Sequence record: SRR31156797_4827
Direction: 5' to 3' (one strand)
DNA length: 55,169 nucleotides
In this document: positions 17,155-51,793 of the stretch, one piece after another
Layout: each line of letters opens with the position of its first letter
Position numbering within the stretch: the stretch's first letter is position 1
Notes under the pieces: generated by a model
What the model was told of the DNA's origin: nothing
Database searches by the model: none
What the model saw: the letters and a program-made list of their open reading frames with translations, nothing else
Made by a program: the position numbers and the translations under genes

Positions 17155-17242
17155 AAATAAAATTTTTGAAAAATGCCAGAATCTCGCTAGCCAAACAAAC
17201 ATTTCTTTGCTATACTTTCTGGGAAGTAAATAGCCTTGATTT

Positions 17243-17454
17243 GATGAAACAAGAGAAGTAGCGATTCGAGTATCAGTTAGCGAGTTCGGGGTGGTGGAAG
17301 CCGAATTGATCAGATTGTGAAACGCACTTGTGAGAATTTGCTAAGCAAACGGAATTCTGCCGTTATCAGAAAAAAGTGGGTCCGAAAAGGACAATCAGAG
17401 TGGTACCGCGGGAAATCTCGTCTCTAGTGCAAGTTATGCGCTAGAGGCTTTTTT
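17243..17454 (+). ncRNA. T-box riboswitch (Arg) upstream of argS
   Basis: AGTA and AGCGAG..GGTGGAA stem I motifs; CGC specifier at 17323-17325; T-box AGAGTGGTACCGCG (~17397-17410); terminator 17420-17454. Confidence 0.93.
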
Positions 17455-38861: not shown

Positions 38862-40196
38862 TTAAAAAAGATTCTCGAAAAAGGTAGACACACCGCGCCA
38901 AGCACGAACAAAGATGTTGGCTTTTTCTACCGTTTGTGTTGTGACCAATCCTGCAGTTTCGTCATGATCAGAAGCATCAATATAACCAAGCGTATCAGCT
39001 GGAATCGAAGCACTTACAGTACCGACTTCTGTGCCCTCAGTCAATGGCGCTTGCAGGGCAGAATCACGATAATGCTCATTAAAGTCAATGGTTGTTTCAA
39101 AGGCTGTTGCATCCATATCTCCACGTACCCATAAGGTCAAACCTTGATTTAAGGCAACGGGAACACTCAATTCTTTCCCATCTTTGACTGACACCGTCTG
39201 TGTATCTTCTAACTGTGCATTTTCTGGTAGAATTTCTACTTGTTCCCAAGCATCGAAGGAGTAGTCCATCAACCGACCTGTTTCGATAAAACGTACGCTT
39301 GGATTTTCCGCATGACCATTGACGTTTAGCACGACGGTGATAATTCGTTGACCATCCTTGACGGCGGTTCCGACAAAGCAGGCGCCTGCCATATCTGTCG
39401 TACCAGTCTTAAGACCGTCAACACCATCTTTAGTATTCGTAAAACCTGGAAGCATCCAGTTCCAATTGACCATCTCGACAGGCGAATAGGAACCTTCGCC
39501 AAATTGTTTGGTGGAAAGACTTGTTACTTCTAAAACGTCTGGAAAGTCTTGCAGCAAATGGCGAGCAATCAGGGCGACATCTTTTGCGGATAGTTCGTTT
39601 TCGTCAGTGGAAGTTGACCCGGGATAGATATTGTCCCCTAAATAAGTATTGTTCAAGCCAGAAGCATTGACGATCTTTGCATCGGTAATGCCCCATGATT
39701 GCACTTTTTCTTGCATTTGATCAACAAAGGCACTTTCAGACCCAGCAATCAGCTCCGCGAGCGCTACGATTGCAGCATTTGCAGATTGGATATAACTGGC
39801 ATCATACAAATCTTTTACTGTATAGGTAACGTCTTGATGCAAAGGGACATTCGATAAGTTTGGCGACACGCTGAGATTCGCGGCATAATCTGAAATAGGG
39901 ACAGGATCATCCCAAGCGATGGTTCCTTGCTCTACTTGCTCAGCTACAAGGTAGAGACTGATGATCTTGGTGATGGAGGCGATGCCCATGGCGGTCTCAC
40001 CATCTTGATCATACAACACTTTGCCTGTGTCAAAATCAATGGAGTAAGCGGCTTTTGCATCGACTGAAAAATCTTGGATCTCTTCGGCGCTCATAGCTGT
40101 ATCATCAGCATACGAAACGACGGGTAAGCCGGCAGCAGCAAAGAGGATTGCCAAAGCAGCAACGATGGAATACCCGAACTTGGTTATTTTCTGCAT
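38862..40196 (-). CDS. D-alanyl-D-alanine carboxypeptidase (peptidase S11)
   Basis: SxxK (ASITK), SxN (SAN), KTG; signal peptide; amphipathic C-terminal helix. Confidence 0.93.
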   Translation of the reverse strand: MQKITKFGYSIVAALAILFAAAGLPVVSYADDTAMSAEEIQDFSVDAKAAYSIDFDTGKVLYDQDGETAMGIASITKIISLYLVAEQVEQGTIAWDDPVPISDYAANLSVSPNLSNVPLHQDVTYTVKDLYDASYIQSANAAIVALAELIAGSESAFVDQMQEKVQSWGITDAKIVNASGLNNTYLGDNIYPGSTSTDENELSAKDVALIARHLLQDFPDVLEVTSLSTKQFGEGSYSPVEMVNWNWMLPGFTNTKDGVDGLKTGTTDMAGACFVGTAVKDGQRIITVVLNVNGHAENPSVRFIETGRLMDYSFDAWEQVEILPENAQLEDTQTVSVKDGKELSVPVALNQGLTLWVRGDMDATAFETTIDFNEHYRDSALQAPLTEGTEVGTVSASIPADTLGYIDASDHDETAGLVTTQTVEKANIFVRAWRGVSTFFENLF

Positions 40197-40367
40197 ATAT
40201 GTAGTAGCTCCTTTAAAGTTGTATCTAAGCAAAAATTTTAACAAAGAGTATCCACTGTTGCAATACTCTAAGAGAAAACTTAGCATTTAATTGCGTAAGA
40301 CCGATCCCTCAGTAGACAAACTGAGACGTTACGTGACTAAGGTTGTTTACTGTAAATAATAGCTAAC

Positions 40368-40407
40368 AAAAAAACTTACCTTCCTATAAAATAGAAGGCA
40401 AGTTTTT
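40368..40407 (-). terminator. Terminator downstream of the 54-aa ORF
   Basis: aaaaacttaccttc-ctataaaatag-aaggcaagttttt; T-run on the minus strand; could be bidirectional. Confidence 0.7.
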
Positions 40408-40437
40408 GTGAATTGACATAGGGTCAAACTGATTCAC

Positions 40438-40602
40438 TTAGCGACGATTGGAATGGATTCTCGGGTTTTGGTTTTGGACTCTGACGGGAACTTTCACCGC
40501 CTTCGTTTCTTGTTGCATAGCCAATTTTGCTAAAAAGAATGTCCCAGCTAACAATGCAGCTAAAGCAAAGATGGAAAAGAGTGAAATAAAGGTCGTTAAC
40601 AT
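40438..40602 (-). CDS. Small membrane protein, 54 aa (not in ORF track)
   Basis: MLTTFISLFSIFALAALLAGTFFLAKLAMQQETKAVKVPVRVQNQNPRIHSNRR; SD AGAAAGAAGGGA; candidate promoter upstream and terminator downstream. Confidence 0.75.
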   Translation of the reverse strand: MLTTFISLFSIFALAALLAGTFFLAKLAMQQETKAVKVPVRVQNQNPRIHSNRR

Positions 40603-40631
40603 AAAAATCCCTTCTTTCTATTTAAAATAAA

Positions 40632-40710
40632 TGTGGAAGGTAGGAATCGAACCTACACCTTAATCTATGAACGATCAAACATCACTCAACGGAACACCTT
40701 GTTCAACCAC
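40632..40710 (-). ncRNA. tRNA-like RNA (pseudo-tRNA or tRNA-mimic leader)
   Basis: Perfect T-arm GTAGG-TTCGATT-CCTAC; acceptor-like stem GTGGTTG/CTTCCAC (5 of 7 pairs); two further hairpins; 79 nt. Confidence 0.6.
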
Positions 40711-40721
40711 TTGTTAAGTTA

Positions 40722-40730
40722 ATGATAGCA
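40722..40730 (-). promoter_or_regulatory. Extended -10 promoter for the tRNA-like RNA and small ORF
   Basis: TGcTATCAT on the minus strand, 11 nt before the first acceptor-stem base; no convincing -35. Confidence 0.5.
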
Positions 40731-40816
40731 TGGATTGCCAAGAAATGCTGATAAAAAGTCTGAGAATTGACCGAAGAAAATGTGAAGAAAACATGAACTT
40801 GTCTTTCTCAGCGATT

Positions 40817-41161
40817 TTAGATGATTTTTGTCAAAGAATAGTGGCAATCTTCAGCTTCATCATATAAAGTAATGACGGAGCCTTTTTGTTCAAGAACTAA
40901 ATGATAGCCAAATGTGTCCAGTAAAACTAACCGCATCGGAGTCAATTCAACGATGGAAGCAGTCAAAGGCTTGCCTTCGATGGTCAACGAATAATCATTG
41001 GCTATTTCTATCGTGACATCTTCTTTTGTCTTGGAAGTAAAACGCCAATTACCAATGAAATTCTGGCGATTCTCATTTTTTTGTTTTTCTTTTCGCAACA
41101 GCAAGGAGCTGACCACGCCCGTTGCAAGAGATAAACCAATCAAAATAGACCTTTTCTTCAT
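40817..41161 (-). CDS. DUF4828-like protein
   Basis: Hydrophobic N-terminus, FIGNW, LDTFGYHL, YDEAED. Confidence 0.65.
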   Translation of the reverse strand: MKKRSILIGLSLATGVVSSLLLRKEKQKNENRQNFIGNWRFTSKTKEDVTIEIANDYSLTIEGKPLTASIVELTPMRLVLLDTFGYHLVLEQKGSVITLYDEAEDCHYSLTKII

Positions 41162-51643: not shown

Positions 51644-51652
51644 TTCAAAAAA

Positions 51653-51724
51653 CGTTCCCTGCCGGAATCGAACCAGCAACTAATCCTTAGGAGGGACTTG
51701 TTATATCCATTTAACTAAGGGAAC
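51653..51724 (-). tRNA. tRNA-Arg(CCU), CCA not encoded
   Basis: GTTCCCT-TAGTTAAATGGATATAACA-AGTCC-CTCCTAA-GGATT-AGTT-GCTGG-TTCGATT-CCGGC-AGGGAAC-G forms a full cloverleaf. Confidence 0.95.
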
Positions 51725-51793
51725 ACAATAGCTATATTTTACCTGTTATTCGTGTTTCTCGCAAGATGAGAAGGAAAAGAAAGGAAGAAAAAC

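Follow-up and report, generated by a model that had tools for sequence, protein, structure and literature searches.

A tRNA-shaped, non-decoding RNA in front of a small membrane-peptide gene belongs to a covarying family in Enterococcus and Vagococcus

The stretch of DNA analyzed here, 55,169 nucleotides (nt) of sequence record SRR31156797_4827 and referred to as the window, carries on its minus strand (40710..40632) a 79-nt sequence shaped like a transfer RNA (tRNA). This element, located between a promoter and the open reading frame (ORF) of a small membrane peptide, is a functional structured RNA under selection, as follows from its conservation above the level of its flanks and from compensatory changes in its stems. 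It belongs to a family of RNAs restricted to Enterococcus, Vagococcus and one or more other genera in the order. With moderate confidence, the element is interpreted as the gene of a non-decoding, tRNA-like small RNA (sRNA) whose maturation would involve RNase P, RNase Z and CCA addition and that, at this locus, would also separate off the messenger RNA (mRNA) of the peptide.

Structure and conservation of the element

The 5' strand of the element, GUGGUUG, pairs with CUUCCAC at five of seven positions, with U-U mismatches at positions 5 and 6. It is followed by a mini hairpin (an AACA/UGUU stem around AGG), a central hairpin of 8 base pairs (bp), UGAGUGAU/AUCGUUCA, that closes a 5-nt loop GUUUG, and an 11-nt linker. 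The T arm, GUAGG-UUCGAUU-CCUAC, is perfect, and CUUCCAC and a discriminator A stand 3' of it. An extended -10 box lies 11 nt 5' of the element, and the ATG of a 54-codon ORF, at 40602, lies 29 nt 3' of it. Re-reading the sequence confirmed that the coordinates and layout, including the promoter box and the distance to the ATG, are as given in an earlier note that had been made from the letters of the window alone. A simple promoter scan did not list the extended -10 box because a good -35 hexamer is missing.

The locus is conserved among close relatives. The nearest genome used for comparisons (G001), which has 87% of sampled words in common with the window, holds it at 99% identity over 501 nt and at 100% over a 401-nt query. 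A BLAST comparison with 61 relatives recovered the locus in all eight genomes of the window's genus and in both genomes of a second genus, g5, where similarity starts at the first base of the element. Across six species of the window's genus, the element has a mean pairwise identity of 95.4%; the values of its surroundings are lower, with 73.2% in the 70 nt upstream, 85.3% in the spacer and 71.0% in the ORF. Loop sequences differ within the genus on stems that are kept. In g5, the central hairpin reads UAAAUAAG/CUUAUUUA in place of UGAGUGAU/AUCGUUCA, and the T stem reads GUGGG/CCCAU in place of GUAGG/CCUAC; both remain paired.

Among eight orthologues, 96.7% of 184 pair cells are paired, against 35-54% in slid registers. 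Two-sided changes affect four pairs (three in the central hairpin and one in the T stem), and the covariation score was reached by none of 500 shuffles. The decay without compensatory change that the earlier note had named as contrary evidence was not what was seen. It is important to note that the argument relies on conservation and covariation because folding stability is not significant: the energy of the element, -19.7 kcal/mol, is unremarkable (z -1.31), and 20 of 200 shuffles were as stable.

Standard detection tools place the element close to tRNA and outside it. ARAGORN made no call there, and Rfam 15 reported no family at gathering scores. Under relaxed thresholds, the canonical tRNA model RF00005 aligned exactly to 40632-40710(-) over model positions 1-71 with 21.4 bits, below the gathering score of 29 (E 0.083 in 701 nt); the model matched both acceptor and T arm and handled the middle of the element as an insertion. 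The other Rfam matches on the element at E<=10 were chance alignments of snoRNA type, with no T-box or other leader model among them. The canonical anticodon arm (5-bp stem, 7-nt loop, U33) is absent, and in its place stands the 8-bp central hairpin, whose 5-nt loop differs within the genus (GUUUG, AAUUG, AGAUG, AGUUG). The element does possess an acceptor/T minihelix (7+5 bp), a T loop of the form UUCRANY and a D-loop GG. Acceptor pairing is 5/7 in the window's genus and 6-7/7 in other genera. The description of the element as a real, conserved, tRNA-shaped RNA unable to decode is upheld. Its tRNA score is low, as the earlier note had anticipated, and that sub-threshold tRNA match is the sole link to a known Rfam family. 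Elsewhere in the window, a T-box leader occupies 17235-17428 (+; 101.7 bits, gathering score 93), and the sole canonical tRNA, tRNA-Arg(CCT), lies at 51652-51725 (-; Rfam 60.4 bits). These two were the only Rfam matches at gathering thresholds across the window, and the latter was the only ARAGORN call.

Members, distribution and origin of the family

Relatives of the element were collected with two covariance models, R1, built from the eight orthologues, and the broader R2, and they measure 79-115 nt. Full-length R1 matches (83-115 nt) come from most genera of the same bacterial family, and a single genome often has two to four of them, although real tRNAs are among the weakest R1 hits. All members have in common a 5' part, GUGGAUGAAC-NN-GGUGUU, and a 3' part, (G/A)AGGU-T arm-CNUCCAC-R, separated by a variable middle of 21-57 nt. 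An alignment of 42 members comprises 588 cells for the 14 core pairs, 99.0% of them paired, and none of 500 shuffles matched its covariation score. The T stem occurs as GUAGG/CCUAC, GCAGG/CCUGU, GCUGG/CCAGC, UUAGG/CCUAA and CCAGG/CCUGG, with two-sided changes at three pairs (25 cells). The acceptor pairs G1-C72, U2-A71, G3-C70 and G4-C69 are present in 41-42 of the 42 members (G3-C70 in every one), and the acceptor 5' strand and the 3-bp D-like stem are invariant in this main family. Compensated changes in these two parts are found in divergent paralogues, with acceptors GUAGAUG/CUUCUAC and GUGGGCG/CGUCCAC and D stems AAG/CUU and AACC/GGUU. One such paralogue, 105 nt long (G001:C67:155724-155828; L182:1001-1105), has the GUAGAUG/CUUCUAC acceptor and the AAG/CUU stem, is present in 8/8 genomes of the window's genus and has a PyrG leader some 250 nt away on the other strand.

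Rfam searches on the elements of eight other members returned no family at E<=0.1. RF00005 scored 28.5 bits on the E. faecalis member and 29.1 (one other genus, distant member) and 24.4 bits on two further members, and the tRNA-Sec model scored 27.6 bits on one further member, against a threshold of 47. Additional Rfam runs on members placed only tRNA-clan models on the elements. ARAGORN made no call on the 20 family loci inspected, nor on 11 further ones. With some members at the tRNA threshold (28.5-29.1 bits), annotation pipelines may label them inconsistently as tRNA or pseudo-tRNA.

The distribution of the family was evaluated at several taxonomic levels. Within the bacterial family, R2 at E<=1e-7 matched 77 of 134 genomes, which represent 12 of 17 genera. 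The remaining five genera gave no hit at this threshold (0/8, 0/5, 0/3, 0/1 and 0/11 genomes), and in genus g16 a single genome of 19 was positive. An order-level sample of 151 genomes yielded hits in families f1 (11/20), f8 (14/18) and f2 (6/19, from one genus with 6/6) and none in five other families of the sample. Four weak hits in family f9 correspond to three tRNA-Leu(UAG) genes and one tRNA-shaped sequence uncalled by ARAGORN. In a class-level sample, also of 151 genomes, strong hits were confined to the same two families, and the six weak loci inspected are tRNA-Gly genes. An origin of the family from tRNA-Leu was considered and dropped, with weak R2 hits being tRNA-Leu(UAG) in 3/4 loci of the order sample and tRNA-Gly in 6/6 loci of the class sample; a single tRNA ancestor is not indicated. 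In another family of the order, a 91-nt sequence (L188:1001-1091, genome G248) with acceptor GAGGUUG/CAUCCUC and T loop UUCAAUU scored 33 bits with R2 and was negative in ARAGORN; this is possibly a distinct tRNA-like RNA.

An exact pattern (GTGGWTGAACNNGGTGTT, a gap of 35-65 nt, GGTTCRANTCC) was additionally searched in one genome per species for 185,579 species. It gave 74 hits, 59 in Enterococcus, 14 in Vagococcus and one in a metagenome-assembled genome labelled Lactobacillales bacterium. The copies in E. casseliflavus and E. innesii are identical to the window element, which assigns the window to the casseliflavus/gallinarum group. The E. faecalis member (L095:4914-5003; also L078) is 90 nt long and is located downstream of nrdI, 94 nt 5' of an hsp20 gene. 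Some members lie near other structured RNAs. For instance, in two Enterococcus genomes of the avium group, a 95-nt member has a genuine tRNA-Sec gene (Rfam 68.4 bits; ARAGORN tca; L079:1330-1422 and L087:1665-1761) at a distance of 70-80 nt; selenocysteine decoding is unexpected for the genus. A 23S-methyl RNA motif (88.4 bits; L080:2489-2593) stands 5' of a SpoU-type methylase gene near a 115-nt member.

These data bear on whether the element could be a functionless relic, either a decaying tRNA pseudogene or a remnant of an attachment (att) site. A tRNA-like 3' half, a degenerate D and anticodon region and the two acceptor mismatches in the genus would suit such an origin, but 95.4% identity within the genus against 71-73% in the flanks, the compensatory changes and the retention in 12 of 17 genera largely refute it, leaving it only the faintest probability. 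The earlier note had already argued against a simple att scar, and this was borne out. The 25 nt of T arm plus acceptor do not occur in G001 beyond this locus with up to three mismatches. When 44 unique ARAGORN tRNAs from 27 fetched G001 loci (L002-L028), a part of the 57 Rfam tRNA hits, were compared with the last 28 nt of the element, the best resident tRNA, tRNA-Pro, agreed at 20/28. The resemblance to the tRNA-Trp T arm that the note had suggested did not hold, at 18/28 being no better than that to generic tRNAs. An integrase is absent among the ORFs of 36-45.5 kb, in line with the note, and neither an island nor neutral decay was seen. The element had no match among 50,697 phage records, and the exact pattern was absent from a viral contig collection. 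A plasmid origin was likewise rejected: the sole match lies on an E. gallinarum replicon of 484 kb that shares the chromosomal gene order and has the peptide annotated as a hypothetical protein; the table of that collection contains no RNA genes.

Genomic context, peptides and transcription

The coordinates of the element, of its parts and of the neighbouring genes are given in Table 1.

Table 1. Features of the element locus in the window
Feature	Coordinates	Strand	Basis
DUF4828 protein, 114 amino acids (aa), upstream gene	40817..41161	-	Pfam PF16110, E 2.1e-27
Extended -10 box TGCTATCAT	40722..40730	-	from sequence; TGnTATNAT kept in genus alignment
79-nt tRNA-like RNA (the element)	40632..40710	-	RF00005 end to end 21.4 bits; R1 104.6 bits; R2 66.4 bits; covariation; 95.4% genus identity
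Acceptor 5' strand	40710-40704	-	sequence
Mini D-like hairpin (AAC/GUU around NNGGU)	40703-40693	-	sequence
Central 8-bp hairpin	40688-40668	-	sequence
T arm	40656-40640	-	sequence
Acceptor 3' strand	40639-40633	-	sequence
Discriminator A	40632	-	sequence
29-nt spacer, starting UUU after the discriminator (predicted RNase Z site)	40603..40631	-	sequence
Shine-Dalgarno (SD) sequence GAAGGG in the spacer	40614-40609	-	sequence; AUAGAAAGAAGG motif also kept in element-less peptide orthologues
ORF of the 54-aa single-helix membrane peptide (MLTTFISLFS...VKVPVRV...), stop included	40438..40602	-	ORF list; orthologues 5' of dacA in 7 genera
Intrinsic terminator, 15-bp stem + U7, ending the element-plus-peptide unit	40366..40407	-	folding
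D-alanyl-D-alanine carboxypeptidase, PBP3/DacA type, downstream gene	38862..40286	-	Pfam Peptidase_S11, E 8.3e-65; NCBIfam strep_PBP3 414 bits, under cut-off

The peptide encoded 3' of the element is annotated only as a hypothetical protein and is without a Pfam match or an NCBIfam family. The order of element, peptide and dacA recurs in three genera, g1, g2 and g5. Among 27 loci of dacA orthologues, the peptide was found in g1 (3/3), g2 (2/3), g5 (2/2), g14 (5/5), g16 (4/5), g11 (1/1) and g15 (3/5), and it was not found at the dacA loci of g17 (0/1) and g10 (0/2). An R2 element is present at seven of the 27 loci, all in g1, g2 and g5. Eleven element-less loci were read: the peptide has a promoter of the TGnTATAAT type 30-70 nt upstream and the same AUAGAAAGAAGG ribosome-binding region, and no T-loop motif occurs within 220 nt of the peptide in any of them. 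The pair of peptide and dacA is older than the arrangement that includes the element, which was inserted between promoter and SD sequence in a subset of lineages. The ordinary promoter and the same SD sequence at the element-less loci mean that the peptide does not need the element. In g5, the stop codon of the DUF4828 gene lies 6-9 nt from G1, a distance at which the element could hardly have a promoter to itself.

The wider context was examined in 58 unique elements, which remained from the 74 pattern hits after 69 with full flanks had been retained. A -10-like hexamer is located 5-8 nt 5' of G1 in 21 of the 58 members, and a terminator-like hairpin starts within 60 nt in 25. The 83-nt type of the avium group is a free-standing sRNA gene, with a TATACT box 6-7 nt 5' of G1 and an intrinsic terminator 5-35 nt past the discriminator. 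No common protein neighbour was found for the stand-alone members; the 83-nt type follows a protein of 123-139 aa with 16-19% identity to DUF4828.

An SD sequence with a single-helix peptide ORF of 25-80 aa occurs within 110 nt of 20 of the 58 members, against 42 of 4308 positions picked at random in these loci; these 20 include orthologues and are not independent, representing two kinds of peptide and some 5-7 distinct loci. One kind is that of the window (MLTTF...VKVPVR). The other, 28-41 aa long and of the form MKK..G..LS..KH.Y.Y.K, had no Pfam match either. Peptides of this second kind stand directly 3' of 90-95-nt members in several Enterococcus and Vagococcus species (L104:3647-3751, L135:7552-7656, L090:2920-3030 and others).

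The earlier note had proposed that the element is a dedicated cis-regulatory leader of the peptide gene, and this part of it was not supported. Peptide orthologues in four other genera stand behind an ordinary promoter without the element, which is the very absence upstream of peptide homologues that the note had named as telling against its proposal. Most members lack this peptide, and many stand alone. A more general form of the idea, an uncleaved structured 5' leader acting in cis, either by protecting the 5' end from a 5'-3' exonuclease or by sensing a tRNA-binding factor to tune peptide translation, is rather unlikely. It agrees with the location of the element between the -10 box and the peptide SD sequence in g1, g2 and g5 and with the excess of small membrane-peptide ORFs over the roughly 1% of random positions. 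Nevertheless, it is at odds with the dacA loci of g14, g16, g11 and g15 that have the peptide without the element, with the 38 of 58 members that lack such a peptide, many of them ending in a terminator, and with the variable loops on conserved stems within the genus. No alternative fold that sequesters the SD sequence was found (z -0.15 and 0.02). Sequestration by the acceptor 3' strand (CCUUC/GAAGG) was considered and rejected, with only 5 bp and a fold no better than shuffles.

The peptides could alternatively belong to a small-toxic-peptide module resembling type I toxin-antitoxin systems, in which the peptide mRNA would need 5' processing for translation. Basic-tailed single-helix peptides of two kinds, lacking Pfam matches and following members at 5-7 or more loci, are in keeping with such a module. 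However, the window's peptide is syntenic with dacA in seven genera, mostly without the element, which fits a housekeeping envelope protein, and no SD-sequestering fold was found; no antisense RNA was seen either, though none was looked for. The module is accordingly regarded as very improbable.

The unit of element and peptide ends at about 40368, at a terminator that a simple scan missed and that folding confirmed (-19 kcal/mol, z -5.81, 0/200 shuffles as stable). Two contigs from RNA libraries are weak hints of expression. The first, 411 nt long and from a bird metatranscriptome, covers 40352-40762 at a depth of 19 against 0-4.5 in the flanks; the second, from a biofilm RNA library, extends from the DUF4828 gene through the element to 40424. 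Two of the four runs examined (X1 and X3) consist of long contigs that may be DNA, and uncovered parts in runs X2 and X5 are no evidence.

Predicted maturation and relation to known tRNA-like RNAs

The 3' flanks of the family resemble those of real tRNA genes. An encoded CCA is absent from all 58 members. Directly after the discriminator stands U in 52 members and C in six, and the first two trailer bases are UU (30), UA (20), CU (6) or UC (2). Among the real tRNA genes of G001, counted as 31 distinct types with one flank each, 30 are without CCA, and their trailers begin with UU (15), UA (8), UC (4) or CU (3), that is, with U in 27/30 and C in 3/30. In Bacillus, RNase Z acts preferentially on precursors that lack CCA and have a U-rich trailer. 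Genes for RNase Z (388 bits, cut-off 293) and for a single nucleotidyltransferase of the CCA type are present in G001.

From these features a course of events can be proposed. The element keeps the top half of a tRNA, namely a 7-bp acceptor stacked on a 5-bp T stem, the UUCGAUU loop and a D-like GG able to form the elbow, and a lineage-specific hairpin replaces the anticodon arm, so that the RNA cannot read codons. Located between the promoter and the ribosome-binding site of the peptide, it would be transcribed as the 5' part of the peptide transcript, some 345 nt long, and transcription may also arrive from the DUF4828 gene upstream. The enzymes of tRNA maturation would treat it like a CCA-less pre-tRNA, as suggested by a tRNA-like 3' flank and by the fact that the conserved parts are those that these enzymes read. 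RNase P would cut at G1, with a short leader expected from a -10 box only 11 nt upstream, RNase Z would cut after discriminator A40632, ahead of UUU, and the CCA-adding enzyme would complete a stable RNA of about 82 nt. The same cut would release the peptide mRNA with a 29-nt leader, as in tRNA punctuation, and in g5 the DUF4828 message would be parted from that of the peptide as well, a bacterial version of such punctuation. This is close to the alternative that the earlier note had offered, a processed sRNA coupled to a peptide; that alternative is now favoured, with the processing itself as its predicted part.

The acceptor and D-like sequence is invariant and the T stem next to it covaries freely, which points to a partner that recognizes sequence. 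As a best guess, the mature RNA would act as a tRNA mimic whose invariant GUGGAUGAAC..GGUGUU is read by a tRNA-binding protein and whose variable hairpin gives specificity. A further-reaching proposal is that enterococci and vagococci, with one or two detected copies per genome, use processed tRNA top-half mimics in trans, by way of the invariant acceptor and elbow, on a tRNA-handling factor, as decoy, regulator or charged carrier, and that the processing, given how frequently members precede small membrane-protein genes, couples tRNA-maturation capacity to envelope micro-proteins. This proposal is speculative and itself improbable; if true, bacteria would have an equivalent of tRNA punctuation whose output is regulatory.

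Several observations weigh against the interpretation as a processed, tRNA-like sRNA. The excess of peptide ORFs behind 20 of the 58 members makes some functional coupling to peptides possible. Covariation of the acceptor and the mini D stem is seen only in a few divergent paralogues, and the two adjacent U-U mismatches in the acceptor of the window's genus might weaken recognition by RNase P and RNase Z. The U8/N9 linker is absent and the D stem has 3-4 bp, with the tertiary fold being assumed. The 23 runs (18 recorded as RNA), of which four were examined, are all assembled contigs, in which 5' and 3' ends, strand and added CCA are not visible. Finally, the discriminator is variable (G in 33, A in 20 and U in 5 of 58 members), and this variability, together with the absence of G3:U70, argues against a single synthetase.

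The last point also bears on another possible role, that of a carrier charged by an anticodon-ignoring synthetase and donating its amino acid to cell-wall or lipid modification. In staphylococci, non-decoding tRNAs serve cell-wall synthesis. The constancy of the acceptor throughout the main family, which identity elements would be expected to show, the discriminator A in the window's clade and the D-Ala-D-Ala carboxypeptidase gene downstream are compatible with a carrier. However, the discriminator varies across the family, alanine identity would require the absent G3:U70, no -1 base is conserved for histidine identity, no transferase gene is a conserved neighbour, and the member contexts are unrelated. 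A carrier role is consequently considered quite improbable, and the processed tRNA mimic remains the favoured interpretation.

The family is apparently undescribed. It was not described in full-text searches, in structured-RNA surveys, in a transcriptome map of E. faecalis and E. faecium or in a Grad-seq paper, as far as the accessible text of these sources extends (PMC11109978, PMC8632094, PMC7724050, PMC10117718); the E. faecalis copy may be numbered in supplementary sRNA tables. According to the E. faecalis Grad-seq paper, KhpB pulls down tRNAs together with sRNA070, which is shorter than annotated and is a conceivable candidate for the E. faecalis member of the family. The significance of the family lies in its being a covarying, multi-copy bacterial RNA, apparently a tRNA mimic, that spans a clinically important genus, E. 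faecalis included, without an Rfam model. It also offers a testable case of tRNA-processing enzymes acting on a bacterial sRNA/mRNA precursor, and in it a structured RNA is repeatedly associated with small membrane proteins. To our knowledge, non-decoding bacterial tRNA mimics are rare, the known cases being transfer-messenger RNA (tmRNA), YrlA and the single-lineage tRNA-Other.

With the canonical tRNA (RF00005), the element shares the 7-bp acceptor, the 5-bp T arm with its UUCGAUU loop, a D-like GG, a discriminator and a CCA-less 3' flank. It differs in lacking U8/N9, in a 3-4-bp D stem that directly follows the acceptor and in having no 5-bp/7-nt anticodon arm. Similarly, tmRNA combines an acceptor and T arm with a reduced D region and a replaced anticodon arm, and it is matured by tRNA-processing enzymes. 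Unlike tmRNA, the element has G3-C70 and no G3:U70, measures about 80-115 nt across the family against about 360 nt, and contains no internal tag frame, as the ORF lies downstream with its own SD sequence and AUG. The ARAGORN tmRNA search of the window and of 20 family loci and the Rfam search of the element were negative for tmRNA, and R1 matched the 3' part of a tmRNA in one locus (L081) weakly, at 18.9 bits.

The likeness to YrlA lies in a non-coding RNA that mimics the elbow and acceptor/T region of tRNA without decoding (bioRxiv 10.1101/312249). The two ends of YrlA come together in the Ro60-binding stem, distal to which stands the tRNA-like part. The element departs from this architecture in that its own ends pair as the acceptor stem, in the way of a genuine tRNA. 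Rfam gave no Y RNA hit at the element, and no rsr/Ro gene stands among the neighbours examined, the genome not having been searched for rsr.

For the proposed cleavage, the models are tRNA punctuation, the t-elements of plant mitochondria and mascRNA of MALAT1, tRNA-like folds that are cut from longer transcripts by RNase P and RNase Z and thereby define the ends of their neighbours; mascRNA also receives CCA. These systems are organellar or eukaryotic, whereas cleavage of the element is predicted, and full-text searches found no bacterial chromosomal family cut in this way.

Closest in idea is tRNA-Other of B. cereus, which is tRNA-like and non-translational, is expressed within larger RNAs, to which it is proposed to lend a tRNA-like structural element, and influences antibiotic resistance and the cell wall (Rogers et al. 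2012, PMC3399842). Both are chromosomal and tRNA-like, and the window element adjoins the cell-wall gene dacA. tRNA-Other is a predicted pseudo-tRNA of a single lineage that flanks a genomic island, whereas the RNA described here is multi-genus, multi-copy and covarying, has no anticodon arm and is associated with no island; the two are set apart by description and not by sequence.

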